Shown here piece by piece: positions 23,943 through 54,389 of a stretch of 64,000 bases of DNA (its first letter is position 1; each line of letters begins with the position of its first letter). Under the pieces are notes generated by a model. That model worked only from the letters and a program-made list of their open reading frames with translations. It was not told the origin of the DNA and ran no database searches. Source of the DNA: Squalus acanthias (lineage: Eukaryota); contig CM059432.1 in the NCBI GenBank assembly GCA_030390025.1, positions 75,084,001-75,148,000 on the forward strand, written 5' to 3'. The position numbers were made by a program, and so were the translations under genes.

Positions 23943-24971
23943 AGAATAGATTTTATATTTTCCAGCCTTAGCTTTACGCCAACAAATAAGTGTTGTCCCA
24001 TCCTGCTTCAAAACAGCACAAGTGTTGATTGAAAATTTCAAATTCAATTTTTTAATGAAAGACTACAACTCCCACTCAGTGCAGTTGTGTTATTATGCTG
24101 AGAAACACCAGTGAATTTTTCAGAATATTACATTAAAAATAAAAGTTAAATGTAACTGTAACATGCTTCCAGATTTTAAAACAATGATTCAATATATGGG
24201 ATGCTACATAGATTTTAAAGGCACAAAAAGCAGCATGGTGGCAAAGCATGACGGAGTTCCATTCACTCTGTCATGTACAGGTTCAAAATAGAATCACTTG
24301 AATTCCCCGCCGATTGAGTTTCCTATCTCACTCATGTTTTGCCGAGAACACACTGAGCAGGAACCTTACATGTCTTCTATTTTTTCTTTCCTTGATATGA
24401 AGAGAAATTACCCCATTCCATTCTGAAGCATCTTCTGGCATCTAGTTATAGTGCTTGGCAGCTTAGTAAGCAGCTTATCCTCGAGTGGGAAAGGTGCAGA
24501 CATAGCAGAAGAACCACAGAGAAAAAGAGGCAGAATAAGAAGTTAAAGAACCAATGCACAGCACTATAGAGCAGTGGGCTCTTGCGTGTGATACCTCACA
24601 CTGCTGCATTCCTTATTTCAACTGTGTCACTGTAGAAAAATAACCTGAGAGGTTTGATAATCTGTCCTAAAAAACAGGGTACGGAAAAAACCCTGAAATC
24701 CTCTCATTTTTTTTTTAAAGTTCTACCTCCCAAGTCACTGTGCCTCCAATTTGTACTCTCTTGTAAGGATGTAATGAAGGAGATAGCCTCCATTTGTCAC
24801 TAAAGTACAAGATCAGAGTTACCAAGGGGGTAAACTATGGATACGAATGTACTTCCTGCTAATCCACTGCACATTGCACTGGATCATAACATGCTCAGTC
24901 ACCATACCACCTGATAAACTGTTTCTTAAATTTAAGAAACAGTTTATGTAGCGGACAATATTTAGACATAC

Positions 24972-25016
24972 CATCAGATGTATCCTCTTGTAAACCAGCT
25001 GCTCCAACCTCCTCTT
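24972..25016 (-). CDS. ASPH: ASPH exon, 45 nt, EEEVGAAGLQEDTSD
   Basis: tttttttttaatattacag / gtatgt, phase 1-1, acidic. Confidence 0.85.
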
Positions 25017-25075
25017 CTGTAATATTAAAAAAAAAGCTGGTCACGCCGATAGAAAGCCAAGCCATAAATAATTCT

Positions 25076-25258
25076 GATGTGGAGATGCCTGTGTTGGACT
25101 GGGATGGACAAAAGTGAGAAGTCGCACACCACCAGGTTATAGTCCAACAGCTTTATTTGAAATCACAAGCTTTCGGATTTCACCTGACGAAGGAGCAGCG
25201 CTCCGAAAGCTTGTGATTTCAAATAAAGCTGTTGATAACCTGGTGTTGTGCGACTTCT
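25076..25258. mobile_element. Penelope-type foldback (inverted pseudo-LTR) insertion
   Basis: About 60-bp inverted arms at 25114-25177 and 25202-25260. Exact 13-bp direct repeat CATAAATAATTCT at 25063-25075 and 25259-25271. AATAAA and a hammerhead core inside. Confidence 0.8.
25180..25216 (+). ncRNA. Minimal type-I hammerhead ribozyme motif
   Basis: TCAC-CTGACGA-A-GGAGC(AGC)GCTCC-GAAA-GC-TT-GTGA: stem I TCAC/GTGA, CUGANGA box, 5-bp stem II, GAAA box, palindromic AGCU stem III, UH site. Confidence 0.7.
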
Positions 25259-27433
25259 CATAAATAATTCTCTACACTCAGCCTTTGCCTGCTTAAAAAA
25301 AACTCAAATTTCAGTTGGTTGAAATTAACCAACATTATAAAATATGGCCCAGAGCCCGGAGAAATTAGTGGAAAAATATAAGCTTATAGGGTAGGAAAAA
25401 AAAACTGAGCAGAATAGCCATGTCATAACACAAGAGGACAGAATAGTTCAGGCAATGGAATATTCCACAATTAATTTTCATTATGATTGTGCAGAAAGCA
25501 CAAAGCTGACTTAAGGAAATTTCTACCCTTTTTGGATTCCACGAGTAAAGTACCATCACACATTTTTGTCCCTTTCTCCACATAGCCTCCATTTCATTAG
25601 TAAATCATCTGTCAGCTAAACATCACAAGATCCCAGTGATACAGAATATAAAATGGTTTTAACATGGAAAACAAGAGCTGCAAAGAAGAAATACTCCCAC
25701 TAACTAAACAACTACTTGCAAAAAGAAAGGTTTTTGCTAGCACAGCTCAGCATCCCCTCCCACAAGATCCGATATTTTGTGCCAGGTAGAAGCATTGATC
25801 TCCACTCAACTAATGTCAGTGTGCAGCTGATCTAAAAGTACAGTTATCAGCATTGAATGTAGAATAAAAGATGTTAACCAGAGAGAGCAATCCCCATCAA
25901 AGTACTAGGCAGTATCTTGAGAAAAGGGCCAGATTTACCCAACTGCAGTTCATAACCACACACCAATGAAATAAAATGCAATGCACTTAGGAAATAATAA
26001 TTTGTAAGACCATCTAAAACATTGAAGAGTTTTACTCTTTATTTGTAAGGGTTTTTTATATTGGTCTTTAATTCGGATTTTAGGGACCCAACATCCATGA
26101 GCCAGCTCCTGACATTTATGCTATTAAATTGGTTTTCTGTAGACCTGCAGACCCAATCTGGGAACCTAAATTTAACAGAACAAATGTCAAAGCTGGCTCC
26201 TGACACCTGGATTCTGAACTAAAAGAAGCCCAACATAAAAGTGGCTTTAGAAAAATCGACAGAATAAAAGCTGGTGAAATTGTAGTAATTAGGTTCCTGA
26301 CTAACCTGTTACTTCCAGATGGTCAGGCTCTGAGGGTTCACTCACTTCTGCATAATTCACATATTCTGTAGTGACAAAAAAACAAAGAAAGCATTCACTC
26401 ATTTTAAAGAGGCTCTGCAATTTCAATCCTGGGGCTGGGATCACCCTGCCTGCACATTGACATTTAAATTAATGTAAATGACAAACTTTAAACAGAGGTG
26501 AAAAAAAACCCAAGTGGTGCAGGACACCAGTCAGATAGCTCAGTGGTACTGCGCCACAGTGTGGTACGATGCAGATCTGCACCCAAGATCGCCTACATTT
26601 CATCTCACTATATATAGTAATTACACCTGTTTTATAATTATTTCAAAAACAAAAAATAATTTGAGTACATACATGAGGTAGCACTATAACTTAGAATAAA
26701 TAAGATGTTTAAATTGAAATGGATTTTTAAAAATAAATTGTAGTGTACATTTGAATCTCTCCTTCTCAACTTTTTAAAATCAAAAGCATCATCTATGGCA
26801 CTGCTCTGCTATTCTGCCAATCTATTCCACCACAAAAAGATAAGAAATGTTATGATCATTTTGGCTGACTTCCTGTCTCCTTGCCTGTCCTCTTCCTCAG
26901 TCAGAAGGAAAGGTGGGTAGGCAAGTTAAAATGGTTTGCAATGCAAAACTCCCTACAGCTACAATCAATTCCACTTTACCGTCAAATAACAGTCAGGCAT
27001 TCTTGATCAGCCAGACATTCTTTATGGATGGAATAGTCTTCCTGTCAATTCTCTCTCAAAAGATTGGTTCCTCCAACATACATAACTAAGCAAAGCTATG
27101 AATGGCTGGGATGCAAATAAAAACCTGTACTTAATGCTCGCCACTAGATTGCATCAATTACTAATAAATTACCTCTCTCACTTTTCTCTTTGGGTAGCTG
27201 AAATTTAAAAAAAATGACTATAGTTTCAAAAATAAAACATGAGTTTTATTGTATAAAGAATGCTGGGAGGCAAATATATCTTGGAACAACTTCAACTGCA
27301 TCAACTTACACTGGAGAATAAAGAGTAGATACTAAACAGTCTTGTACTAACACTTAAATAAAATGAAGATTTCCACAGAAGCCCCACAATAGAAATCACT
27401 GTTGCGTTTTAAATTTGAAATGAAAACCAATAC

Positions 27434-36623: not shown

Positions 36624-36854
36624 ACTATCTTTACCATCATAGATATCTTTTGGCACTGCTTCATTGAATGCTTCAACTACAATTAAAAATATATCCATCC
36701 GGTTTATCGTCTCTCCCAGGAGTGACTGTAGCATGATGCATGGGGCTAGATGGGCCAGTGGGTATTTTCCAGTACATCATTTTTTTATGTTTCTATGTAC
36801 CACAGAAGCCATAATCTCTTAATACACAATATTACACTTGAAAATGATGCCCAC

Positions 36855-36899
36855 CTTCCTCTGTAGGCTCTTCCACTGCCTCTGGAAGAGGTACTGCAA
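36855..36899 (-). CDS. ASPH: ASPH exon, 45 nt, VAVPLPEAVEEPTEE
   Basis: tcttcctatcttacag / gtgggc, phase 1-1. Confidence 0.8.
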
Positions 36900-38680
36900 C
36901 TGTAAGATAGGAAGACGAATAATGTTCTAATGCCTGTGAGAAGTACAAAGCTGAGGAAATGTGCTAAAAGCTTAAGGGACATGCTGTACCTCTTAATGCA
37001 AGCAGCTGTACACAGATCAGAACAAGTCATTTTGGATTTATACAGAACAAAAGTAATCACATTAAACCAACACCCACATTGCACAAACTACACACTATAC
37101 AAAGACATTTAATGTTTTGATTACTTCATTGAATTTTTTTTACATTTCTAGAAATCTGCCGTGACAGAATTTGTCACATATTTACAGCATTAGATTCCAT
37201 AATCTTTCTCCTTCAGCATCCCCATTGCTGGCACTAACTATTTGGCATTTGCACATTGCAGGAAATGGTGAGTTAACGAATTTCAGCCAGGATGGTAGCT
37301 GGGACAATGCAGTGGCCTCGGTAGGCCTGGGCTTGGGGAGAGCAGACTGTGGGAAGAGGAAGTGAGGAGAAAGTCAGCCAGGGATCCCGCTCCTGATTAC
37401 TACCCAGTGACACCTGCTGAAAAGTGCACATGTGGACATCAGGTGAGGACAGGATCAAGCTCAATTCTAATACTCTCCATGACAAACTAGCCTGCCGACA
37501 CACCATCCAGGCTAACATGTGAAGATGTTCAATTGAGACAGATACTGAAGCATGGGCAGCACAAATGGAATTGCACCCTAACGTAGGCTCACAAACATCT
37601 TTTGAAAAGTTTTACAAAACAGCTTAAAACACACACCATTCCTAGACAGACAAAAGAACTCTTAGCATAGAAAACTGCAAACTACAAGAGGATAGGACAG
37701 GACCAAAGACAGCCAAGTCAGACAAACCTTGGATTTCAGATTCCACATCCAAGCTCTGAGATCCATAGGCTGTTATAAGTAATAAAATTGACATTTTGTT
37801 AGTAATGTTCACCCTTTACACGTTCGGCAGATAATGTTAGATTTTTTTTTTAAATAGAAAGAAAAAAATCTGAGCCAGTTATGAAAGGCAGTCTCATTAC
37901 AAACCTGATTGGCTATCTTCATCTGTACTTTGAAGAACAGGATACACTTCTGGAAGAAAAAACAGGCCAACAGGGTCAAAGGCAGTACATACACCACAAG
38001 TATAATAATCTTAATATATGATTCATAAAGTTGTAGGTCAGAGCACCTTTTCAATAGCCTACCAAGGATGGAAAGGGTACAAGGATGCACTCACTTTAGA
38101 GGGCTGTGAAGTAATTTAATACATCTAAGAATCTGAACAAGGGAGGGAGAAAACTCCTATTAAATTCCAGCACAGCTAAAAATACTAAAAGTTGTCACAC
38201 AGATTCATAAGGAAAAGTGCATATATTTTAGTGCTTGACCACAAGATTCTTTACAGGCAATACAATATGCTGCATCATGAAACATACCATTTTCCTCATT
38301 CCCCATAAGCATTTTTCTTCAGGGGGAAAACGAGGGGAAAGAAATGGGCTGTTTCATGATCCAATACTTTGTGGGGGTAGGTTGCATGCAACTTTGTTTC
38401 TACAATCAACAAAGCTACCCCAGACCAGCAGAGAATTAGTATTTTTTTTGGTGCGAGCAGGCATGAAACAGATTCAGTTTTTCTTCCCAGAGTTGGCACA
38501 TTTGCCTATCGCAAGACTTTCAGACTCGAGACTGAAATTGATGATTGATAAAACCGAATCCCGCTGAGAGAGCTGGTTTCAGGAACAGATAGTCCTCAGC
38601 CTGGAACCTGATCTAGTTGGGAATCTGTGCAGTAACTGCTAGACTTCTCATAGTACAACTGTTTAAGGGAGCAAGCAAAC

Positions 38681-38722
38681 CTTGTATGTCTTCAGTCCCT
38701 GGAACATACTCTGGTTCTTCAG
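38681..38722 (-). CDS. ASPH: ASPH exon, 42 nt, AEEPEYVPGTEDIQ
   Basis: ttgtctcctactag / gtttgc, phase 1-1. Confidence 0.8.
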
Positions 38723-38846
38723 CTAGTAGGAGACAATTTAAAAGCAGTTACAATCCAGCTTTATATTGGCATGTTCAGTATATATTTCTTCCCTCCACTA
38801 CCCAGCATAGCTGAAAAAACAGGGCTCGTTACAGTAACAAAATATT

Positions 38847-39614
38847 GGCCCTGGAATTTGCAGTCAGTGGTGAAGCAAAGGCATTCGCCGCTGGCCCCGA
38901 AGTAAGCTTCGCACAAAGATCTTACAATCTTAGTGTCGAGAAGTTCGGGTTTTCCGACGTGTAATTCAAATCAACCGAGTTTAGTGGGGATCCCCTAGTG
39001 CGAGCTGCTGTGACGTCAACAAGCTGTCTAAGCAGCCAATCAAAACGCAGAATTCACAGACAGCGAACAAGGAAGTGAGTAAGCTCTTAAAATTCTAACT
39101 TTTAAAAAATGTTAAGAGAGCAAAACATGAGAGCGGCTCTCACATGGGGAAAAGGTAAACCTGAAATAAAGATGGACAAACTTAAAAAATTTTTTTTAAA
39201 GTTTCTCAAAAATTATAATTTTTATTAAAATGATAAATTTGACACTGCACAAAATTTTAAAAAAAGTGTGTTTTTCAGGCCCATAACCTTTGTTTAGCAG
39301 TCAATATGCTGTTAAAACCCCAGTTACACCGTATCCTTTTGGGTCTAACATTTAGTGGGGAATTTAACAGCGGTATTACTGCATAAGAGCCGCAATTTGT
39401 GTCAGTTTCCCTAATTTGAGATATTACACAGATTGCTAGGTGTGCGCGTGTTTGGGGGGGGGGGCACAGCGCAGCCTGTGTCGGAGCAGTGAATGACAGA
39501 CCGCAGCTTCAGGATTTCCGCATGCGCCAGATCCCGAAGTTGCGGTCAATTTCAAAGGCGGAATGACAGCGAACGCCGCCAGTTCGCAGTTATCCGGACC
39601 ACAAATTCCGGGCC
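38847..39614. mobile_element. MITE family B copy 1
   Basis: TIRs GGCCCTGGAATTTG / CAAATTCCGGGCC, flanks ATT/GTT. Shares a CCAATCA...GGAAGTG block with 41088-41822. Confidence 0.75.
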
Positions 39615-39797
39615 GTTATTTTATTCTTAAATCTGCAATCTTTCATGTAACCACATGGTGGCCATTAATTTATTTTCTTTGCAAAAGAACATACAAAAGC
39701 ATATTTACAGCTGTCTAAGAGTTTGCTGTTTAAATTTGCTTACAGCTGAAAGGTCACATTTGTCTGTAAGAGGTATTAAGAGAAACAAGGCACTTAC

Positions 39798-39842
39798 CAT
39801 AAATTTCTTCCACTGTATCTTCAGGCTCTGGGACATCATTTT
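39798..39842 (-). CDS. ASPH: ASPH exon, 45 nt, ENDVPEPEDTVEEIY
   Basis: tttatttgcttgttgcag / gtaagt, phase 1-1. Confidence 0.9.
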
Positions 39843-40124
39843 CTGCAACAAGCAAATAAAAAAAAAAAAAATAGAACTTTTCCTTCAAACCTTCCCTTTC
39901 TTTCTTCCCTCCGGACAAGATTCCTGCTGGGGAATAGTTCCAGGTGTGCTGGCAGCCCTACAAGGACCTTGCCAAGTGAAGATTTTGAGAGTGAACCCAG
40001 AGAGTCAGGAAACCAATGAACTATGGAATTACAGCCAAGCCCAATGTATACACACACACACACACACATCTCTCGCTCTCCATATATTATATGTACATGC
40101 ATATAGATATGCAAACTGGAAGAA

Positions 40125-40822
40125 ATTTCAGCACATCCAGAACTGCATCCAGCTGCCTAGGTCCTAAGCTCTGGAATTCCCTCCCTAAATCTCTCCACTT
40201 CTCTTTCGTCCTTTAAGACACTCCTTAAAACCTACCTCTTTGACCAAGCTTTTGGTCATCGGCCTTAACATCTCCTTATATGCTAGGTGTCAATTTTTTT
40301 TTTTTGATAACACTCCTGTGAAGCACCTTGGGACATTTTATTACGTTAAACATAGAAAAAACATAGAAACATAGAATCTAGGAGCAGGAGTAGGCCATTC
40401 GGCCCGTCGAGCCTGCTCCGCCATTCAATACGATCATGGCTGATCATCCAAATCCAGTACCCTGTCCCTGCTTTAATCCCCACAGTACACATATCCCACC
40501 CTACCCCCGTAACCCCACGTATTTAATTCCCCCTAACATATCCCATCCTATCCCCATAACCCCACATATTTAATCCCCCCTAACACTAAGGGTCAATTTA
40601 TCATAGCCAAATCAACCTAACCCACACATTTTTGGACTGTGGGAGGAAACCGGAGCACCCGGAGGAAACCCACGCAGACACGGGGAGAATGTGCAAACTC
40701 CACACAGACAGTCACCCGAGGTCAGATTCGAACCCGGGTCTCTGGCGCTGTGAGGCACCAGTGCTAACCACTATGCCACCGTGTTGCCCAAAAGGCGCTA
40801 TATAAATATAAGAAGTTGTTAT
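40125..40822 (+). mobile_element. L2 3' end split by a SINE insertion
   Basis: CLGPKLWNSLPK. The tail TACGTTAAA|AAAGGCGCTATATAAAT is interrupted at 40350/40790. Confidence 0.85.
40351..40789 (-). mobile_element. Full-length tRNA-derived V-SINE (HE1-like)
   Basis: A box TGGCATAGTGG and B box GGTTCGAATC. V-domain GTGTGGAGTTTGCACATTCTCCCCGTGTCTGCGTGGGTTTCCTCCGGGTGCTCCGGTTTCCTCCCACA. CR1-derived tail ending in (TTTCTATG)n. Confidence 0.9.
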
Positions 40823-40937
40823 TGAAAGATCCCATACTACCCAACTATTTCTCAATGTCAACATATTAATCACCGGTTAAAAGAAAACAAATACAAAATG
40901 GAAAATATACAAATGTGTGCTGCAAGTCAAGATATAC

Positions 40938-40982
40938 CTTCAATGAATTCATCACTTATTGGCAGCTCCTTCTCCATTTCAT
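40938..40982 (-). CDS. ASPH: ASPH exon, 45 nt, DEMEKELPISDEFIE
   Basis: tgttttacttgcag / gtatat, phase 1-1. Confidence 0.85.
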
Positions 40983-41087
40983 CTGCAAGTAAAACATAGT
41001 ATTTAACCAGTGGCATAAGTATAGCTGAAAATCCAAAGCTTGTCAATCCCCAAGAATTTATACGTAGGTTTATTCAATTTGAAGTAT

Positions 41088-41822
41088 GGGCTGGATTTTG
41101 CTCTCTGTGGCGAATGAATAGCACCAGCCGTTCATTATATTCACACGCAGGCTTTCTATGGGATTTTGTACTGGAACTTACTGTAAATTAGAGCCAAAAT
41201 GGCACAGTGCCCTCTACAGGGAATCTGGGACCTGTGTGAAGAAGGCAAACAACTATCTATCTTCTTAACCAATCAGATTGAAGAATTGTTAATGAGCAGC
41301 CCAGAGTCTGAACCAGGAAGTGTCAGTTAGAATATGCCAAATCAGGTACAGAAAGCAAAAAAGAGAGGGAAAAAAGATGGGATTGAGAGAGAGAGAGAGA
41401 GAGAGAGAGATGAGAGAAAAAGTTTTTTTTTTAAAATTTAAATGTTTTAAAATCTCCAGCGATAATTAAAATCTGAAGGAATGAGCTTCCACAGTTGTAA
41501 AAGTTAACTTTCGGTAGTAATTAAGACTTACCACAGCATTAAAATTTACTTGCACTTTAATGGACAAGCCCTCATTTTTTCTGCCGTGTTTAGTGGGTAA
41601 GTACCGCAACTTCACAGCGTTTCATGTATTTCAATGCCGAATCTCTCAGCAAGATATAGTTATTGCGCAGGTTCTGGAGGAACAGGGCAACTCAGACAGC
41701 AACTTACTGATTTCCATGTTTAACTGCACATGTGCAGTCGTTGGAAGTTCCTGTCCGATTTACACTTTAAGAACGGTGAGCGCTACAAGCCTCGCTGTCA
41801 TTTCCACAGTAAAATCTGGCCC
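41088..41822. mobile_element. MITE family B copy 2, with an internal (GA)n microsatellite near 41385-41410
   Basis: TIRs GGGCTGGATTTT / AAAATCTGGCCC. Confidence 0.7.
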
Positions 41823-41909
41823 ATTAAAAATGCGAAATGGGTAAATTGCTCCCTCTGCTGACTGGAATCCAAAAATGGTATTGTTGTAATGCCTAATTTA
41901 CCACTCAAT

Positions 41910-42360
41910 AGCATTTATATAGCACCTATCACGGCCTCAGGACATCCCAAAGCACTTTACAGCCAATGAAGTACTTTTGAAGTATAAGTCACTGTTGTAA
42001 TGTAGGAATCGCAGCAGCCAATTTATGCACAGCAAGACCCAACAAACAGCAATGTGATAATCACCAGATAATCTGTTTCTTGGCTGTTGACTGAGGTATA
42101 CATACATACATACATATTGGCCAGGACACTGGATATAACTCCCCAACTCTTCTTTGAAAGTGTGCCATGGAATCTTTTACGTCTACATGCGAGGGCAGTT
42201 GGTTTAATGTCTCATTCAAAAGATGGCACCTCAGACAATGCAGCACTTCCTCACTACTTAACTGGAGTGGCAGCCTGGATTTTATGCTCAAGTCCCTGCA
42301 GTGGGACTTGAACTCACAACCTTCTGACTCAGAGAGGGAGTGCTACCACTGAGTCACAGC
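41910..42360 (-). mobile_element. Deu-domain SINE (SacSINE1-like)
   Basis: tRNA-like head, Deu core (GTGCTGCATTGTCTGAGGTGCCATCTTTTGAATGAGAC...TAAAAGATTCCATGGCAC), L2-like tail. Confidence 0.8.
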
Positions 42361-42773
42361 AGAAAGACAATCAGCTTTGGGTCATTTCAGGACTTTTTTT
42401 TTTTAAATCCAGCTACGGTAACCTGGTGCCAAGAACTCAGATCCTGGTTTAAATCCTTGTGCCACCACCTCAGCAGCATCCAGACTGTTGCCAATCTTGC
42501 TTTGCCTTGTTAAAAAAAAAACGAAATAAGCAGATCATTCATATACAAAACAAGTAACTACCCGTTTTAAAAGGTTAAAAAAGGTTAAAGGTTAAAAGGT
42601 AAATTGCACTCTGAAATGTAAAGTGTAAAATGGTGTGGATACCATTTCCTAGTGGATTTTGAATCTTTATTCATGCTTTTCAGCATTCTAAGAGAAAGGA
42701 CAGCGGTAAGAATGGCACACAATGGTATTTTTAACATACCCCATTAACAAAATAAAACTTTCACTTGGCATAC

Positions 42774-42803
42774 CCACGACCAACAACCCAGGTTCCTTCT
42801 CAT
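42774..42803 (-). CDS. ASPH: ASPH exon, 30 nt, DEKEPGLLVV
   Basis: ttttatttacttcag / gtatgc, phase 1-1. 76-nt intron to the preceding exon. Confidence 0.75.
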
Positions 42804-42879
42804 CTGAAGTAAATAAAAGCTGTCAACTATTAAACACAAAAAGACTTTGCAACAAGTAAATAAGCACAAAATGTTCCAC

Positions 42880-42933
42880 CTTCACTGTCCACTTGGTCAG
42901 AGAAATCCTCTTCCACTTCGGATTCATATACTC
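42880..42933 (-). CDS. ASPH: ASPH exon, 54 nt, GVYESEVEEDFSDQVDSE
   Basis: ttactttttttccag / gtggaa, phase 1-1. The VYE start resembles human AVYEPLENE (recalled). Confidence 0.85.
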
Positions 42934-44076
42934 CTGGAAAAAAAGTAACAAGTGTAAGGTAATGAAGTTCAAAACAGCATCGCCGAAGTAGATATATCAT
43001 TCTAATTCAGCATATGTAGCTGTGTTTTTAAACAATACAATAATGAAAGGAGTTCATAGCAAAATCCCGGGAATGCACTTAGTAATTTGTCCCCTACTTA
43101 TTTGAGAGAAATATTCACAGTTCAGTCTATCCTGAGGGCAGATTAGAAACCAATTTTCTTCAAATTGGAAGAACAAATCACGCTGTGGCTACCAATAAAA
43201 ATGGCAACTTTCCCCCCAACTGGCAGTTAAATGTTTCAAATCTGACAGTTTACAAAAAAACAGCCAAGTTGATATTATACTATGTTGTACACAGCACCCA
43301 GAGTGACTTCGGGTACAGTACCACTTAGAACTTATGCTACATTTATATATGAGAGAATTCTTACAAGAATTATTTTTGTGATAGTCATGGCTACCCGTGC
43401 TGTGGAATCTGCCCCATTTACATTGCAGGACAGATTCTGCATCATTAAGCAAGAGGCACACAAGAAGCTTGTTTGCAAACCATGGATATGCAGTGGTTTG
43501 AAAGTCACTGCTACTTTTCGTCCTCAGACCTTACGCAAAGGTTGAAGGACTGTCTACTTCACTGGCAGCAGCTCTATAAGGTAAATGTACAATTAGTGTT
43601 TTTACCTCATATTTTTGTAATCCACTCAAAAGGCAAAGTGAGTATACCAGTCAGATAACATCAGGTTACCACACTGGTGTTTTGTTAACTACGAAGGAAA
43701 GTTGAAAAGCTTTCTACATGTAGTGTCAGACCAGATTTCCATTTACACTTTCACAATGATTTTTCTTTGGGAAAGGTATTGGCCCAGGGGGGCATGGGGA
43801 AAAAAAGGAATAAGCAGAGAACATTACATAGTAACGTTTGCTTCAAGTCCATACCAGTTCCCAAGGTGCACCAAAGCAATAGTTGAGACGGAGTTGATTA
43901 AAGGTAGACAAATATCTTGCTTTACACCAATACCAGTAACAATTACAGTTTTGACATAGGCCCGGTTACATATTGAAGCATACATAGAAAAGTAGTCCAA
44001 CATATTTTTTTTAAATTCCTCTGTATTCACCTCTAAGGAATGTCAAACAGTTGAAAGGTATAAACACAGTACATAC

Positions 44077-44127
44077 CTGGAACATCTTGTTCAGAAACCA
44101 CCTCTTCAGGCTCAAGCTCAGCTTCAT
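44077..44127 (-). CDS. ASPH: ASPH exon, 51 nt, DEAELEPEEVVSEQDVP
   Basis: atttatgttgtag / gtatgt, phase 1-1. Confidence 0.9.
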
Positions 44128-44212
44128 CTACAACATAAATAGCTTTTTGTTAATAGGCTGAGTATTATGGACAATTGTTAAAGTTAATATATTTCCTGGT
44201 AAAGACACAAAC

Positions 44213-44260
44213 CTGAAACAGCATAATCATCAACTTCTTCCCCCCTCACTTCGGATTCTG
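44213..44260 (-). CDS. ASPH: ASPH exon, 48 nt, AESEVRGEEVDDYAVS
   Basis: ttttttcccttcag / gtttgt, phase 1-1. CAGCAG tandem acceptor. Confidence 0.85.
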
Positions 44261-44349
44261 CTGAAGGGAAAAAAAAGTGTTTCTGTAATGTTAATGATCT
44301 TTTCCATACATTTTTGATGGCTACAATGAAGATGGCACACGATAACTAC

Positions 44350-44397
44350 CTGAAATTTTGTCTTCAGCTACATCTGCAACTTCAGGTCCAGAGTCCT
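44350..44397 (-). CDS. ASPH: ASPH exon, 48 nt, EDSGPEVADVAEDKIS
   Basis: tctgttactttcag / gtagtt, phase 1-1. Confidence 0.85.
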
Positions 44398-44802
44398 CTG
44401 AAAGTAACAGATACTCATCAATGACTTGGGTACAAATAGCCAAACTGCTGGCTATAGTCATCATTTTCAAGAGCAAGCCTTTATACAACGCCCTTGATGT
44501 AGTAAGATGACCCAAGGTGCTTCACAGAGACACAAGGAAAAAAATGATCGCCAAGCAAAAAGAAGAGATATTGAGAAGGGTTCATCAAACGTTTGGTAAA
44601 AGAGGTGGGTCCTAAAGGAAGAGAGGGAGGGAATTCCAGAGCGTGAGCCTAGGCGATTAAAGGCACAGCCACCAATGGTAGCGTGACGAGAAGGGGAGAA
44701 GCCTTTGCTCCATATCCCTGGATACCCATGCCTAACAAAATATCAATCTCAGTCTTGAAAGTTTCAATTGACCCAGCACCCACAGCCTTTTGGGAGAGAG
44801 AT

Positions 44803-45287
44803 AGGTCAGGAGTGTGATGGAATACTCTCCACTTGCCTGGATGAGTGCAGCTCTAACAACACTCAAGAAGCTCAACACCATCCAGGACAAAGTAGCCCGC
44901 TTGATTGGCACCCCATCCACCACCTTAAACATTCACTCCCTCCACCACCAACACACTGTGTACCATCTACAAGATGCGCTGCAGCAACTCGCCAACACTT
45001 CCCAAAACCTGCAACCTCTACCATCTATAAGGACAAGGGCAACAGGCGCACGGGAACACCATCATCTGCAAGTTCCCCTCCAAGTCACACATCATCCTGA
45101 CTTGGAAATAAATCGCCGTTCCTTCATCATCGCTGGGTCAAAATCCTGGAACTTCCTTCCTAACAGCACTGTGGGACTGCAGTGGTTCAAGGCGGCGGTT
45201 CACCACCACCTTCTCAAGGGCAATTAGGGATGGGCAATAAATGCTGGCCTTGCCAGCGACACTCACATCCGTGAATGAATTAAAAAA
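44803..45287 (+). mobile_element. 3' fragment of the 7031-9051 LINE family, preceded by a decayed minus-strand L2 tail (about 44475-44700)
   Basis: MEYSPLAWMSAA..TLKKL..IQDK and the shared 3' end. Confidence 0.85.
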
Positions 45288-45497
45288 TTGCTGTTGAACT
45301 TCATTACCTTGTGGAATAACTTATAAAAACATCCATTCCCCAACAGGAAGCATACAGATGAAGAAGAGAAGACAGCCAATTATTCACCAATGAGGCAACA
45401 GCACTAAGAACAGCTCTTTCCAAACTTCATATTTCACAAGATCCAAACATTACAAACAAGCAAATAAGAAATAAAAGGACAAAAGCTGTCTGTAACG

Positions 45498-46293
45498 TCA
45501 TAAGAATTAGGACTAGGAGTAGGCCATACGGCCCCTCAAGCCTGCTCCGCCATTCAATAAAATCATAGCTGATCTTTGATCTCAACTCCATTTTCCCGCC
45601 CGATCCTCATATCCCTCGATTCCCCTACAGTCCAAAAATCTATCTATCTCACCCTTTAATATACTCAATGACTCAGCATCCACAATCCTTTGGGGCAGAG
45701 AATTCCAAAGATTCACAATCCTTTGAGTGAAGAAATTCCTCCTCATCTCAGTCCTAAATGGCCAACTCCTTATTCTGAGACTATGACCCCTAGTTCTTGA
45801 CTCTCCAGCCAGGGGAAACAACCTCTCAGCATCTACCCTGTCAAACCCCCTCAGAATCTTATGTTTCAATGAGATCACCTCTCATTCTTCTAAATTCCAG
45901 AGTATAGGTGCAATCTACTCAATCGCTCCTCATAGGACAACCCTCTCATCCCAGGAATCAATCTAGTGAACCTTTGTTGCACTGCCTCGAAGGCAAGTAT
46001 ATCCTTCCTCAGATAAGGAGGAGATTAAAACTGTGCACAGTACGCCAGAGTGTGGTCTTACCAAAGCCCTGTACAATTGTAGCAAGACTTCCTTACTCTT
46101 ATACTCCAATCGCCTTGCAATAAATGTCAACATGCAATATGCCTTCCTAATTGCTTGCTGTACCTGCATTTTAACTTTGTGTTTCCTGTACGAGGACAAC
46201 TTAATCTCTCTGAACACCAACATTTAATAGTTTCTCACCACTTAAAAAATATTCTGTTTTTCCATTCTTCCTACCAAAGTGAATACCCTCACA
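45498..46293 (-). mobile_element. CR1 LINE 3' fragment
   Basis: LLQLYRALVRPH, ESRTRGHSL, FFTQRIVNLWNSLP and the CR1 tail. Confidence 0.9.
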
Positions 46294-46695
46294 CATCATG
46301 GAGTGATTTCTCAGGGCCGACCCAGGTGCTGCAGTGTGGACACTCTTACTTTAATTCGTCCAATCTAATACTGAGTTAATCATTGACAAGTATATCCTTT
46401 AAATATATTTATCTTCTTTAGATCTTCGTGTCTTGCACCATCCTCTGGCTGGGTGGGCAAACAGATGAACTGAATTGTTAACTTGCCCTCCCTTGGCATA
46501 GAGAAATACATGGTGCTTGCTTAGCAACTTTCCACAATGACACAGCCAAAAAGATGCATTTGTGGTGTCAGGGAAATCAGAGCTTCAAAGCCACTATTAA
46601 ATTATTCCATTGTCCAACACCATGTAGTACTCACGTATCAACAGAAACTCACGCATTTTACTAAATAGATATGAATAAAACAGAGTAAGGAGTAC

Positions 46696-46749
46696 CTAGA
46701 ATCTCTGCTCCTTCGGACAATGTTTCATCTTCCACATACACAGACTCTT
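46696..46749 (-). CDS. ASPH: ASPH exon, 54 nt, EESVYVEDETLSEGAEIL
   Basis: tctttcttacag / gtactc, phase 1-1. VEDE as in human SEPVVEDERL (recalled). Confidence 0.85.
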   Translation of the reverse strand, partial: KSLCMWKMKHCPKEQRF

Positions 46750-46837
46750 CTGTAAGAAAGATACACCCATTTGTTTACAACCCAAGATATAATATCCAAT
46801 GGAAACCAATCTGTGCAGAGCATTTACAGTCACTAAC

Positions 46838-46891
46838 CTGGAGATTCTGTATGCTCATACATCATCTCTTCTTCCTCCATTTTAGATTCAT
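46838..46891 (-). CDS. ASPH: ASPH exon, 54 nt, DESKMEEEEMMYEHTESP
   Basis: tattctttcag / gttagt, phase 1-1. Resembles human QDMEEMMSEQENP (recalled); the most diagnostic exon for the gene call. Confidence 0.9.
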
Positions 46892-46972
46892 CTGAAAGAA
46901 TACTACTTTTTAATTAATTGAACGTTTTCATAATGCTTTAAATAAGGGATTGAATGTGTACAAAGTACAAAC

Positions 46973-47041
46973 CTGGAGTATCTGCTTCTTCAGGTCCAGA
47001 TTCTACTGTTTCATATTTAACTTCATCTGCAAACTCAGTAC
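46973..47041 (-). CDS. ASPH: ASPH exon, 69 nt, GTEFADEVKYETVESGPEEADTP
   Basis: tgtgcttgttttaag / gtttgt, phase 1-1. An internal in-frame tttgcag acceptor is also possible. Confidence 0.85.
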
Positions 47042-48076
47042 CTTAAAACAAGCACAGATTTAGCAGGACACAAAATGTAGCATCACCTACCAGAAATAAG
47101 CATGGAAAGCACAGGAGCAAACCACTTCATGGGCATCTGTATTTACTCGTGTATGTGTTATTATTCCCTACATGTACAATTCAGTGGAGATGATGAAGCA
47201 TTAATTGGACAGCCCACAAAGGAAGGGCCAAGACTACACTCTACAGATTAAAAACTACCCTAGGTAGAGTGGACTCTGCTTCCAAAGCCTTGCGTAAGGA
47301 GTTCCTACTTTAAGTAGGAAGTTGGAACAAGGTCTGAGGTCTCTCTAGTTGTGCATGTTTCTTTATAAATAGAATAACTTTGATGGCTATTTTACAGATT
47401 GCAAAAGAATGTTTTTCCTGAACAAGCCCCTGAATCTGGGCCTTAATCTGGTCAAAAATTATAGAATTAAGTCTCTTTTTGCCACCTATGGGTTTGGACA
47501 GCTTTAATTCAGTTCCTTATGATCATAAATTTGCAAACCAAAACCATAAATTGGTAGTCTCACACAGAGAAGCTAATAGGATGCTGGTGCGAGACATGAA
47601 AAATGTAAATCACTGCAAAATGGGGTGCTCTTCTAAATTTGGGGTGTGGGAACTTTTTGTAGTAAAGGGTGCTTTACTCTGTGTTTGACCTGTGATCTTG
47701 ATGGCAGGTTTATCAAACCAAGATCTCATGTTGTACACATCCCTTGGAGTACCTAAACATAGCACTTGAACTCTAGAATTTCATTTCCTGGGGAAAAAAA
47801 AGACAATACTCATTTCCCCTCCCACTACTTCCAAGCCTCTGATCTCTCTCACCATCTACTTCTGCCTCCAACATCCCTTCTTACTTGTCTTCAATTCTTT
47901 ATCCTCCAATGCCCCTTGCACCACTCACTACTCTGCCTTCCTATAATTATTTCCCTCTCCCTGATGTGCATCATGTCTCCTTTAGGACTGCCTAGTGCAT
48001 CGCCAACTCCAAACCCTACACAACTTTGTCTTCCTCCCTTTCCACCTCCAGAGTAGTCTTTCTTCATTATGTCAAT

Positions 48077-48480
48077 CTTGGCTCAGTGGTAGTTTTCTCA
48101 CCCAAGTCAGAAGGATGTGGGTTCAAGCCCCACTCCAGAAACATGAGCACATAATTTAGGCTTACACTTCAAGAGAGGGTCACTGATGCTGTCTTTCAGA
48201 TGAGATGTTAAAACGAGGCCACAGGAGAGCTTGACATAAAAGATCCCATGGCACTATACGAAGAAAAGCAGGTGAGTACTCCCAGTGTCTCAATTACCAC
48301 CACAAACAGATTATCTGGCCGTATATCTAATTACTGTTTGTGGGATCTTGTTATGCGTAAATCGACTGCCACATTTGCCTGCATGACAACAGTGACTACA
48401 TTTCGGAAGTACTTCTTTGACTGAGGCACTTTGGGACATCCTGAGGACCTGAAAGGTGTTTTATAAATGAACGGTCTTCT
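48077..48480 (+). mobile_element. Deu-domain SINE (SacSINE1-like)
   Basis: TGGCTCAGTGG...GGTTCAAGCC head, TCTTTCAGATGAGATGTTAAA...TAAAAGATCCCATGGCAC core, L2-like tail. Confidence 0.8.
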
Positions 48481-49016
48481 TTGCCTTTATTTTTCCCCAC
48501 CAATTTTCTCATCTCTCTTGAAAGTGGAGGCTTTATTGGTAACTCTCTGGTACATCACCCATAGTAGTCATATATGAACCTCAATAGTGAGTTGGCAAAC
48601 TAGTCGACACCAGAAGGCATCACAGCCAAGACAGATCCAAACATTAGCTGACGATAACATGCACTTTCCAGCAGGGGTCACTGGATAGCGACAAAAGGGA
48701 ACCCTGACTAAATTTTCTCCTCCATAAATCTAGGGGTGCTGCAGCCAACTATAGTGTCTCTATTGCTGCCTCTGCTGTGAGCTAATGTAAGTAGGAGCAC
48801 AGAAATTAACTTGCTGGTCTGCAACGTTCATATACTCACTGTATAAATCTGCTTCCGCTATAGCGGAAGCACTAATTCACTCTTGGAAAAATAATGGATG
48901 GCTTCTTAAAGTCTTCCTGACGTGGATACATCACTGATGACATATGTTGATGCTGAGATTTTTGTACTACACCTATTTCACCTCTATGTATACAATAATA
49001 GTTTATGAACGCTCAC

Positions 49017-49106
49017 CTGCTTCAGCATCTTCTGAATCTTCACCCTCAGCATCAAATTCATTTGTCCTTTCCTCTGTTGGTGGTTCTTCCCCTTCAGCTG
49101 CCACTT
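49017..49106 (-). CDS. ASPH: ASPH exon, 90 nt (93 nt with the upstream AAG acceptor), EVAAEGEEPPTEERTNEFDAEGEDSEDAEA
   Basis: ttttcataatttttaagtag / gtgagc, phase 1-1. Confidence 0.9.
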
Positions 49107-49444
49107 CTACTTAAAAATTATGAAAATAAATGCTGTGTGCGCTTCTAAAACTTGTACAAATGTTAACTTCATACAAGCTTTGAATCCTAATTCTGAAGGC
49201 CAAGATTACAATTATTTTAGAAGTTCCAAATAAGGTCCTTATAAAAACATGCTGAAAAATACAGATGTAAGCTCGGCAAATTATTTAGTATCCTATAGGA
49301 TTCACACATGAATATTTAATCTTTGGTTGAATTTTTCATAATTCCTCCAACAAACCATCCCAAGTTTTTTCATTCTTAAATTGTTGGGGTTTTTTGTACT
49401 CTCACTGCAAAAACCTTTTGTTAATATATTACAAGTGAAAACCA

Positions 49445-49899
49445 AAACTCTGCTGCCCGTATCCCAACTCGCACCAAGTCCTGTTAGCCCATCACGCATG
49501 TGCTTACTGACCTCCAGCAACGCCTCGATTTTAAAATTTTCAAATCCCTCCATGTCCGCGCCCCTCCCTATTTCTGTAACCTCCTCCAGCTCTACAACCC
49601 ACCGAGATCTCTGCACTCCTCCAATTCTGGCCTCTTGCACATCCCAGATTTTCATCACTACACCATTGGCAACCGTCCCTTCAGCTGCCTCGGCCCCAAG
49701 CTCTGGAATTCTCTCCCTAAACCTCTCCACCTTGCTCTCCTCCTTTAAGTCACTCCTTAAAACCTACCTCTGACGAAGCTTTTGGTCACCTGTCCTAATA
49801 TCGCATGTGAAAGGTGTCAAATTTTGTTCGATAGCACTCACGTGAAGCACTTTGGGATGTTTTCACTACGTTAAACACGCTATTTAGATGAAAGTTGTT
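49445..49899 (+). mobile_element. L2 LINE 3' fragment
   Basis: QRLDFKIFKSLH, FSCLGPKLWNSLP and the L2 tail. Confidence 0.85.
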
Positions 49900-50422
49900 C
49901 TGTATTATAAAGTTGTTTAAATGTGTTTCTACTTTAACATTTCCCATTCTTCTTCTCTGCACCATCCTCCAAAAGCCAAAACAGAGAATCCAGGCACCTT
50001 TGTTGTGCTTCTTGAAGAGGACCCCATGACATTTCAATTAGATATTACAAACTGTTGTGAATTCTTCACTAGTCATGGGATACCCATATATCATCTTACT
50101 GAAAGTGCATGAATTTTAAACTAGATAACGGTCATATCTACTCATATCATAGCAGTTAGTAACTATGGGGCATCAATTTATGACTACCAAAATATATCTA
50201 TCTATATTTCAGTTCCTATGAGAGAGAGGCCAAAAGGGCTATAAAATTCTATGTTACCACGATCTTTCAATTCTTCATATGACACTTTAGTGAGAAGCAA
50301 CAGATCAATTATAGTGATACCTAAAGACATATCTGGTTCCATCTATGATTTTATATCTTCGATCTGCATTGGTCTTGCTTGAGTTCTGGAATAATATGAT
50401 GCTCTGAAGAGGAAAAACCTAC

Positions 50423-50491
50423 CTGGAGTGGGTTTGAAAGTCTGCGGATCCACACTGTCTTGCATCGGTTCTAATTCTTCTTTTTCAGCCT
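50423..50491 (-). CDS. ASPH: ASPH exon, 69 nt, EAEKEELEPMQDSVDPQTFKPTP
   Basis: cattattttag / gtaggt, phase 1-1. Confidence 0.85.
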
Positions 50492-52424
50492 CTAAAATAA
50501 TGTATTTTTGTACAGAAACAATTTCAGCTTAGATACTCCTGTACTTAAACAAGTCTTAATACAATAGCTTGTATTGAGGCAAAATGTTGCTTTATTTATT
50601 TCCTGCACCCTCAAATTGCTGATACATCCATTGCCTGGTATTTACTGAGCCACACAAATAGAAAGATTTCCATATCTACACTGAGTTTGCTGATCCCAGA
50701 CTGAATTATTTTGAAACGTTATCGTTATAATTACAATTTTGATAATCAGTTTAGGGAGGTGAATGGCACTCTCTAATTGTCCCTATGCGCTCTACCTACC
50801 AGATAAATTCCTTCAACGTATACTCGTCACAAGCCCTATGCCAATACTGCTGAATGCAGATGAGCAAATAATTGGAGGTGAGCAAGAGGCAGGAGGAGAT
50901 AATGTTTATTGAAATGATAGAAACACAACATATAACAGAAGGACCAGATTACAGACAAGGTGTTGTTGAAGAATAGACAAAAAAAATTATATTAGTGCGA
51001 GTATATTTGGTATCAATTTTAGAATTGAGAATTCAGATATTACAGAAATATGGCTGCAAATAGAATATGGACTGAATGTGGAGCCAAGAAGGTATAAAAT
51101 GTTTACGATAGATTGATCTATTCAGCATTATTAGTAAAGATAATTAAAAGCCAAAGGGTTGAATAACAGCAGAAGGGGAACTGAAGAAGCAATATCGGTA
51201 GAAACTAGTAATTAAGAGCAACAATACAATTATTGGCTTCCATTATTACATGTCAGTGAAAGACAAGCCAGTAGACAGCAATTCGTTAGGCAAGGAAGAG
51301 GCTGCTCAAAATCATAATTATTTGGGGGTGAGGAAGGACTATTGCTTATGGTACACCAAGCAAGGGCAAGCAGAAGGGTGGGAGCTGTCAGGAGGATTAT
51401 GTGGGAACTGAAACTAAAAAAAAGTTGAATGCAGAAATCATTCAGCTGGTAAAACCAAAAATAATCTAAATGTTAAGGAAAAATATTTTTAAGATACAAA
51501 AAAAGACCTGAATAATCAGAACAACTGCTTAGATGTCAATAGCCAGATTTCAATGAGATTCAAAGAAAGTGGTGTAATGGTAGAAGTATTAAATTAATTT
51601 TTCACATCAATCTTCAAAAATGAAGACTATTTCTAGGCACCATTGTTTTAACTCAGAATTCTAAAACATATGTCTAGAGATCAGTAAAGCTTCTAATAGG
51701 AACAAATTCAAGTTATTAAATGAGAAGCAATCACCTGTTCTTTCACAAACAAAAATAGGTGAAATGTGTTACAAGAGTCAAATTGCAACTACTGCACAAT
51801 GAGTGGTCTTTTATATTTAATTTTAATGCAGCAATAGCTGCTGCAATTCAGTTTGGTGGAAATCACAGTATTTTTGTTTTGATATTAAAGCTACACACTC
51901 ATTATGGCTATACTGTGTGTTGCACCAGTCATTAGTCAGCTCATGACAAAGCAGGGCAAGTTTATTTTTTAAAAGCAGCACAATTAGTATAAAATGTCCC
52001 TCTTGCAGCTCCTCTCAGCAAAAAAAAAGCATGTTTCTTCGGGTGTTCAATCTGAATGCTCACAGCAGCTACTGTTAGCAAGACCCCATTAACCTTTACA
52101 GGTAACCAGCTTAACAAAGATGGGAGGGAGAAAAAAAAACACGTCTTGACAAAGAGTTGGTCTTTAAGGTTTGAAGTTGGCATTTGGATAGAATACGATT
52201 AATGAGTTTATTTTGTATTGCACTCCAGAAAATTATTAAAAATTATTCATTTTTCAATCTTCAGTTTTGCCATTTCATAATGCAGGGATTGGTTTACCCA
52301 TCTTTCTATTCCACACACTCCCATTAAAAAAAGCTGCCAAGCATCTTTACTCTATAAAGATAAGCTTGTTTATCTCCAGATAAATCATTTTCATGAGTGT
52401 TCACGTAATGGAATCTCAAATTAC

Positions 52425-52517
52425 CTGTCTCTATGAATGTGTGCATAGATGGCTGAATTGGCTCTTCATTCTTCCCAAAATGTTCAGCAGGAACAGGTCC
52501 TTCTACTTCTTTCAATC
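52425..52517 (-). CDS. ASPH: ASPH exon, 93 nt, GLKEVEGPVPAEHFGKNEEPIQPSMHTFIET
   Basis: catttgaaaacag / gtaatt, phase 1-1. Starts GLKE like the human GLKERSTSEP... exon (recalled). Confidence 0.9.
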
Positions 52518-54389
52518 CTGTTTTCAAATGCCGAAGAATTTCATAAAACAACAGAAGTTGCATCAAGGACCGGATCAGCAGGGCTTCTTAAAATTGTAAT
52601 ACTGAAAACCTTTTCAAGCATATACATTCTATTATGCTACCATCAACAACTGTGTTCAGAAGTGGTTATAAATTGTACAGGTATTAATTGAAGCAACTCA
52701 TCAGCACAAATCATGATTCTTACAGTATGATCTTGCCACTGATTTTTCAAAAGGATTTTGAAAGGAACGAGAAAAAATTCTCAACGCTTTATTTCAGGCA
52801 AGAAAGGGGAGGGATGCAAGGAAGCGAGACACACACAAACACACACCTTTACACATTAAAATTTTGCATGACTGAATTGGTTAGCAGCATTTTGCTGGCT
52901 ATTTTAAATATTTCTGGTTGCGTAATTCAAAGATACATGTGTACTTCATTCAGCTGGTAAAACCAAATGTTGATCAAATATGTATAGATAATGCATTGCA
53001 AGCCTACCCACAGCAGGACATCATTACTCTCCTAAGACTGTAAGAACTAAACAGCACAATCTTACATAACCTCAACTGCAATCAACTAGGAAATACTGCA
53101 ATTTTTAACCAGTTACCCCAACTAATGCAGCTAAAACTAAAACCCAAAAGTCATGTTCTTATATACAATAGGATGCCAATGCTCCGAACAGTCAGGCTCA
53201 GTCCAAGGTAGTGACCAGGGATGGGGATGGAGTTGGTGGTGAGGGCCGAAGATGGCAGCTTTGATTTTCCCAATTATTTTTCGAAAAGATTTTGAAAGAA
53301 ACTGGAGAACAAATTCTCAAAGCTTTTATTTCAGGCAAGAAAAGGTGGGGGTTACGAGAGCAGAGACAGCCAGCCACATATACTATCAGAAGGGGTAGAT
53401 GAGTGGAAGGGAGGGGAAAGGTGGGGAAGATGAGTGGAAAGGAGGGCTGCAGAAGAGGCAGAGGGAAAGTAAAGGAAAAGGAAAAGGGGCAGAGAAGGAA
53501 TTAGAAAAGTCTGTCAGGGGAACGGCAAGTCCATTAGCAGATATGGGGACTGGAGACCAGCCTGAAAAGTTAGTCAATGGAACGGTTGTTTGAGACCTGA
53601 AAAGATCAGCACTGGGAGTGTGTGGATGCAAACTCCAGGTAGGAGATCGGACCGGAAAATGAAGGGATGGGTTACAGTCTGGCCGGTGTCCCCTTCCTCT
53701 ATTTTAGGATACTGATAAGTTTCACGTGCATCTATCCCCAATATGGATTAAGAGATATTTTTACATAAAGATTGATTCTGCATTGCCATCCAGTGGATTT
53801 TAATGGGGCTGCATATGCTTAGACACATGGTCACCTTAAGACCAAAAAGACAGTTCCAAAGTGCTTCAAACTAACTTTATGTAACAAGTCTTTTGGCATT
53901 ACAAGTCCCACTCAGCATTTGTAATATACAATAGATATCAACAATTGTGCTTTTCTGTTACGAACTCCTCTCAGACAAAGAGCAGCTGTGAGAGGCAATA
54001 CATATGGTTCTTCGTTGATAGCTAAAAGAAACCAAACGGAATGGATTTTTTTAAAGAGTCAATCACGTCTTTTGAGTGTATATATTAAATCATTTTTGAG
54101 GCTAAACAATTTTTTTTATATTTAAAAACTGGAACTGCATAAATGAACTTAACATTTTATGTTATATTAAAGACTGTATAACTTTGAGATCAATAATTAT
54201 TTGCAAACATATTTAAACTGTTCTGCTTCTGTACTCCTGGCACATACTAGGAATAAATATCAAGAAATTGTGCATATCTAGTCTGTAATTTTCCATTAAT
54301 TTTAAGCAGAACATTTGTGTTTAAATGCTTCAAGAGTAAAACAATATGAGGAACCAACTAACAATGAGGAAAATGGTTGCAGAGATAAG

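Follow-up and report, generated by a model that had tools for sequence, protein, structure and literature searches.

An intronic hammerhead-bearing stub of a Penelope-like element in Squalus acanthias and its likely formation at insertion

The foldback described here lies in a window of 64,000 nucleotides (the whole stretch of DNA analysed, C8:75,084,001-75,148,000, from a genome of 3.7 Gb) and is a stub of a Penelope-like element (PLE), Neptune-type as judged from the protein predicted for its parent; it is one of many thousands of such stubs and not a separate mini-element. In all likelihood, the stub consists of two head-to-head copies of the terminal repeat (pLTR), built at insertion by the element's protein from a capped, uncleaved sense RNA, with the use of both cut strands. 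The lopsided shape of the insert is most likely a trace of this mode of insertion, and selection that spares the host gene is the less likely cause. We also lean towards reading the thousands of stubs as an in vivo record of Penelope retrotransposition, in which capped, uncleaved sense RNA beginning 7 nt before the core is copied at both nicked strands and a cap-derived C seeds the join. The stub type and the hammerhead are already known in PLEs, and it is the end statistics that shed useful light on mechanism: taken singly, the locus is ordinary debris, whereas the family amounts to a natural experiment on the PLE cycle.

The insert, its host gene and its parent element

The host gene, ASPH, runs on the minus strand, with N-terminal exons at C8:75,192,135 and 75,177,163 and catalytic exons at C8:74,956,184-74,957,620; its homologues are shark sequences, and its exons within the window were placed by tblastn. 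In run X1, presumably RNA, one contig has 26306 spliced to 25016, with a GT-AG intron of 1,289 nt between them; the contig is silent on RNA ends and on the insertion in X1. Because ASPH lies on the minus strand and this splice joint spans the insert, the stub is intronic and its whole core is antisense to the gene, so that exon mapping and splice joint agree with the antisense position given in the preliminary description. The features, in window positions, are as follows.

24972-25016, minus strand: 45-nt ASPH exon downstream of the insert (tblastn; joints 26306-25016 and 24972-22341 in run X1)
25063-25075, plus strand: left TSD of 13 bp, identical to the 13-mer at 25259-25271
25076-25177, minus strand: mirror arm, comprising the 3' part of the pLTR and a tail of about 40 nt (25076-25114), without CUGANGA
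25177-25260, plus strand: complete arm, running from the predicted RNA start (+1 = 25177) across the hammerhead and up to the first end site, without a tail
25180-25216, plus strand: minimal type-I hammerhead motif with U at H17 and a palindromic stem III, which the hairpin is predicted to sequester; the commonest form in the family (163 of 322 motifs)
25259-25271, plus strand: right TSD, its first two bases common to the element end
26306-26365, minus strand: ASPH exon upstream of the host intron (tblastn and run X1 joint)

Read from the window sequence, stem I is formed by UCAC (25180-25183) and GUGA (25213-25216), the core boxes are CUGACGA (25184-25190) and GAAA (25205-25208) with an extra A at 25191, and stem II is GGAGC (25192-25196) with GCUCC (25200-25204); U16.1-U17 fall at 25211-25212, and the predicted cut follows 25212. 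Core boxes, helices I and II, a base between A9 and G10.1 and a palindromic stem III are all present, as expected of a minimal type-I hammerhead, and the anatomy reported earlier is confirmed. The bare core pattern occurs at near-chance frequency (12 matches against 6.3 expected), and we regard the motif as real because of its family context, namely exact copies genome-wide and its place in the terminal repeats of a full-length element. A search with hammerhead models, proposed earlier as a check, yielded no hammerhead match in Rfam at the gathering score or at E<=10, and the Rfam matches to the hairpin were microRNA precursors only, far below cut-offs; we assume that these models miss hammerheads that lack stem III.

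The insert measures about 183 nt between its 13-bp TSDs (foldback z = -16). Its arms pair at 100% over 25145-25177/25202-25234 and at 96% over 25115-25140/25235-25260, the complete arm having a 4-nt deletion near 25236. The mirror arm is 5'-truncated within stem II, at about family position +25, and the minus strand contains the GAAA half but neither CUGANGA nor the 5' strand of stem II, which upholds the earlier account of an arm ending at 25177 and of a half core on the ASPH-sense strand. That account did not include the 13-bp TSD or the extra tail on the mirror arm, which matches the junction of pLTR and ORF start in the full-length element L171. The junction between the arms is that of another copy, L085, except for one C>T at +2.

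Around the insert, the 3' splice site of the 45-nt ASPH exon lies 59 nt from the stub end and about 98 nt from the long hairpin (25017-25115), a branch-point-like motif occurs near 25041, outside the stub, and the exon is included in the run X1 contig. The acidic middle of ASPH (window 36850-52520, minus strand) is divided into numerous very small exons, each about 40-95 nt long, and the next ASPH intron contains a perfect 34-bp palindrome at window 24914-24947.

A 31-nt motif of the family has 15,960 exact copies in the genome (8,096 + 7,864), against 0 for the reversed control, and the next-best 29 DNA matches are foldbacks with this same layout. From the mirror arm, the tail continues into an ORF start with 88 exact genome matches. 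L171 consists of a pLTR with hammerhead, an ORF of 891 aa and a second pLTR with hammerhead, with the 31-nt motif in both terminal repeats. Its protein contains the RT domain PF00078 by Pfam and, read by eye, a C-x4-C-x2-C linker ahead of a GIY-YIG-like motif; Pfam gave no GIY-YIG domain match for this protein, and no match for two ORF fragments of L052. The element's protein has homologues in sharks, at 79-92% over the aligned parts, and relatives contain PF00078 and in some cases also PF01541. The parent is thus an autonomous EN+ PLE with a single ORF between direct pLTRs, the EN being recognised by eye and from PF01541 in the relatives. A CX2-5CxxC linker between RT and EN is characteristic of the Neptune type in passages of PMC8557442, and its presence points to a Neptune-type parent, an assignment by linker rather than by tree that leaves Nematis formally in play. 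The link to Penelope proposed in the preliminary description is hereby placed on a full-length element.

A search that forced the core recovered U at H17 in 312 of 322 motifs, and in related subfamilies N7 and loop II have changed, while helix II is held through G-U pairs. At five loci of such subfamilies (L186, L249, L307, L121 and L134) loop II is longer, N7 is G and helix II includes G-U pairs, with the hammerhead plan kept.

The plan of the stub recurs across copies, which were sampled mostly from contigs C1-C3 by exact patterns. Among the 27 insertions behind the first 30 exact matches, counted by eye, 21 are foldbacks and 6 lack a nearby mirror arm; CUGANGA lies on one arm in 12 of the 21 foldbacks and on both arms in 9. 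Exactly one tail is present in 63 of 67 foldbacks, and exact TSDs of 12-13 nt flank 68 of 103 sister copies, so that an inverted 5'-truncated pLTR, a one-sided tail and a TSD, the marks of a PLE insertion unit, are found together. In 5 of 20 loci (L151, L155, L156, L166 and L169) an arm that begins at +1 or close to it is attached, in direct orientation, to the initial ~75 nt of the ORF; this landing site recurs and may reveal how tandem pLTRs arise. Elsewhere, C1:20,117,318-20,128,654 contains three inverted pairs, each about 1.05 kb wide, within 11 kb, which suggests local duplication of a larger inverted unit.

Predicted folding and orientation in introns

Forcing the hammerhead fold is predicted to cost 1.3 kcal/mol in the motif alone, 3.8 in the arm and 23.4 in the whole insert, and the same long hairpin is predicted for the ASPH-sense strand. 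The hammerhead in the stub would, on this modelling, be inactive on either strand, and the earlier notion of a strand able to cut the pre-mRNA sits badly with a fold in which GAAA, cut site and stem I are predicted to pair with the mirror arm. A U at H17 is, moreover, a poor cleavage base. For metazoan minimal hammerheads in general, passages of PMC4209133 and of the review PMC6765202 describe no monomer activity and low dimer activity.

These properties bear on the possibility that intronic stubs are kept mainly with the intact core antisense, as a core in sense would cut the pre-mRNA. The window copy has the antisense orientation, and Xenopus retrozymes are described as under-represented in introns in passages of bioRxiv 10.64898/2026.07.22.740005 that contain no strand test. 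We nevertheless consider such selection improbable, given a motif predicted to be sequestered and of a kind with little activity, and given that one-core and two-core foldbacks are both common. As a proxy for gene direction we used transcription-linked TA+GC skew in repeat-masked flanks, which reads +0.11 on the sense strand of ASPH and is positive in 8 of 9 bins. Read in the core-sense frame, 105 of 120 long one-core loci (15 were dropped for having <1,500 unique bases) gave a flank skew of -0.003 +/- 0.007, with 56 positive and 49 negative loci; left and right flank skews correlate weakly (r 0.23, p 0.03, n=82). With the genic fraction assumed to be 0.4-0.5 and the genic skew 0.05-0.10, full antisense retention lies 2.4-6.5 SE away, whereas the proxy does not separate a mild bias such as 70:30 (0.7-2.4 SE); a small 3-kb locus set (13 of 20) inclined towards the sense side (+0.07, p 0.012). 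A strong antisense bias is therefore unlikely, a mild one being compatible with the skew proxy, and the selection against a sense-strand core that had been offered as one explanation is unsupported.

The other explanation offered, inversion or truncation at insertion, is supported. A literature search, with supplements and subscription papers outside its scope, found no strand test of such stubs. One-core and two-core stubs share the same hairpin and AATAAA on both strands, and hence would, given a gene annotation, provide a clean comparison for selection against intronic cores.

Arm ends, junctions and the making of stubs

Under the mechanism that we favour, the template would be a capped, uncleaved sense RNA starting at +1, and each nicked target strand would prime one cDNA at one of two internal start sites, one giving a tail and the other none. 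One cDNA would reach the cap and hence carry the whole hammerhead, and the two cDNA 3' ends would then be joined by 1-4 nt of microhomology, trimming the other arm at a variable point; the strand that retains the core would be a by-product of joining. An Anolis PLE protein in vitro cuts and extends both target strands and has two internal starts that define the tail, with no need of ribozyme cleavage (passages of PMC11167929), and this behaviour predicts stubs of the kind observed, with one cDNA per nick and joined 3' ends.

In L171 a TATA-like run begins 30 nt before an Inr-like TCACTTC, the A of which is +1 (window 25177), and from these two motifs +1 is predicted to be the RNA start. TATA and TCACT motifs are noted in rotifer pLTRs in passages of PMC3846280, and the Drosophila Penelope promoter is described as internal and TATA-less in passages of PMC2377424. 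Arm ends pile up at +1, 7 nt before CUGANGA. Genome-wide, the base before +1 is the native C in 16,210 cases, G in 3,030 and A or T in 1,479 (29 A among the first 100 A/T matches listed, counted by eye). Of the copies sampled, 44 of 46 with G lack native upstream sequence, as do 10 of 10 with A, 9 of 20 with T and 7 of 30 with C, and the arms that run past +1 (23 of the 30 C copies) imply that read-through RNAs are also used. Scaled up, non-native bases number roughly 2,900 G, 430 A and 470 T, and roughly a third of the arms reaching +1 end there; 43 incidental flank arms, partly of other subfamilies, were left out of the end counts. G is thus about seven times as frequent as A or T, whereas on the mirror strand G and A are available in nearly equal numbers (38 vs 32 bases; GA 10 vs AA 9).

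An extra cap-derived G marks full-length L1 insertions (passages of PMC11702581), and our literature search, of the same scope as above, found no report of a cap-type end signature in PLEs. Against the mirror arm, 12 of the 46 G junctions fit G and A equally, and these need no cap; a further 12 fit G only, 2 fit neither, and 20 have no exact mirror match before the G. At least two pairs have G on both arms (C1:80,769,882/907 and 114,623,289/313). The same G would also result if the RT added C at whatever RNA end it reached, which counts against the cap reading. Two other sources of the G are ruled out: a subfamily with native G at -1, by the copies without native upstream sequence, and a splice acceptor at +1, since the native bases are TC rather than AG and the sequence before the G varies by copy.

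The head-to-head shape could also arise from self-priming of one strand, whether an antisense RNA, as proposed for head-to-head PLE insertions in passages of PMC3846280, or a cDNA folding back. Short complementarity at the junctions is compatible with this, subfamily marks are usually common to both arms (180 of 191 and 128 of 141 foldbacks, against expectations of 55% and 53%), and self-priming could yield copies whose complete arm also has the tail. However, among one-core copies it is the truncated arm that bears the tail in 73 of 100 and 24 of 40 cases, so that each arm contains sequence absent from the other, in the window as in most one-core copies, and a single strand folding back cannot produce such arms. 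An antisense template, furthermore, gives no reason for a sharp end at +1 with an extra G, nor do the pairs with G on both arms favour it, and we consider self-priming an improbable explanation. Under the favoured two-primer mechanism, the shared subfamily marks imply that the two cDNAs are mostly of one source; loop-II length is unequal between arms in 18 of 149 foldbacks, which this mechanism leaves unexplained. A non-CpG subfamily mark differs between arms in 11 of 191 foldbacks, and two different RNAs may have been used in some insertions.

Cleaved RNA as the main template is ruled out by the end counts, cut-site ends being rare relative to those at +1 and to the recurrent junction types (540 and 549 copies). 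With the 4-nt microhomology of stem I, 63 ends fall at the cut site, plus 26 of the first 100 of 164, whereas another 4-nt junction is found in 540 copies. Ends do cluster locally there (26 of 100 ends within 13 nt), a peak that stem-I microhomology can explain and to which some cleavage could add.

Each of the two recurrent junction types is found on both subfamily backgrounds (51 and 17 copies; 19 and 14), and either arm may bear the tail (73:19 of 100; 24:14 of 40); it is from these two observations that we infer that junctions form anew at each insertion. Also improbable is the reading that the preliminary description had adopted in calling the insert a short non-autonomous ribozyme-bearing retroelement, namely a self-propagating foldback akin to retrozymes or SINEs, for which master stubs would serve as templates and which the Penelope protein would copy whole: the recurrent junctions and the retention of the hammerhead and both end sites agree with it, but junctions are many and vary by copy in the manner just given, no fixed internal structure inherited from master copies was found, and the stub begins only after the TATA box, which it lacks, and forms no tandem array.

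The PLE cycle and the role of the hammerhead are left open in passages of PMC11167929, PMC8557442 and PMC3846280, and the stub end counts give predictions for the start site, the cap G and the rare use of cleaved RNA. If the favoured mechanism is true, the stub record would settle whether head-to-head PLE insertions are copied from a sense or an antisense template, and would show that most integrated cDNAs do not owe their ends to the hammerhead.

Comparison with known systems

Passages of PMC8557442 and PMC3846280 describe EN+ PLE insertion units as a 5'-truncated copy with an adjacent inverted pLTR, a one-sided tail of 30-40 bp and a TSD. The stubs resemble these units in their head-to-head pLTR arms, single tail and TSD, and the family pLTR resembles theirs in its TATA and TCACT-type Inr and in an ORF start at the tail; unlike them, the stubs are only about 185 bp long and contain no ORF, and their thousands of copies make ends countable. 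Where PMC3846280 invokes antisense self-priming, the present data favour a capped sense template.

Minimal type-I hammerheads have been described in metazoan PLE pLTRs in passages of PMC4209133, and the shark motif shares with those the CUGANGA/GAAA core, a 4-bp helix I, an unpaired base before G10.1-C11.1 and a palindromic stem III; it differs from the forms described there in having U at H17, a 5-bp helix II and, within stubs, pairing with the mirror arm. Like the non-LTR retrozymes described in passages of bioRxiv 10.64898/2026.07.22.740005, the stub is non-coding, derived from a pLTR and equipped with a type-I hammerhead. As defined in those passages, however, retrozymes consist of direct repeats in tandem that include two or more complete hammerheads, whereas the stub is one inverted pair with one core and gives no sign of its own propagation.

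LINE-1 twin priming, as presented in passages of PMC11702581, offers a further parallel, with inversion by priming on both strands, joining by microhomology and an extra G at full-length 5' ends; in the stub, by contrast, both arms copy the same RNA segment and there is no poly(A) priming. Finally, the shark family resembles the Anolis Poseidon element PAc, in passages of PMC11167929, in its two internal end sites set apart by the tail, in the proposed extension of both strands and in the proposed use of uncleaved RNA as template. It differs from PAc in its Neptune-type linker, in an ORF that starts at the tail end and not inside the hammerhead, and in evidence that comes from the genome alone.
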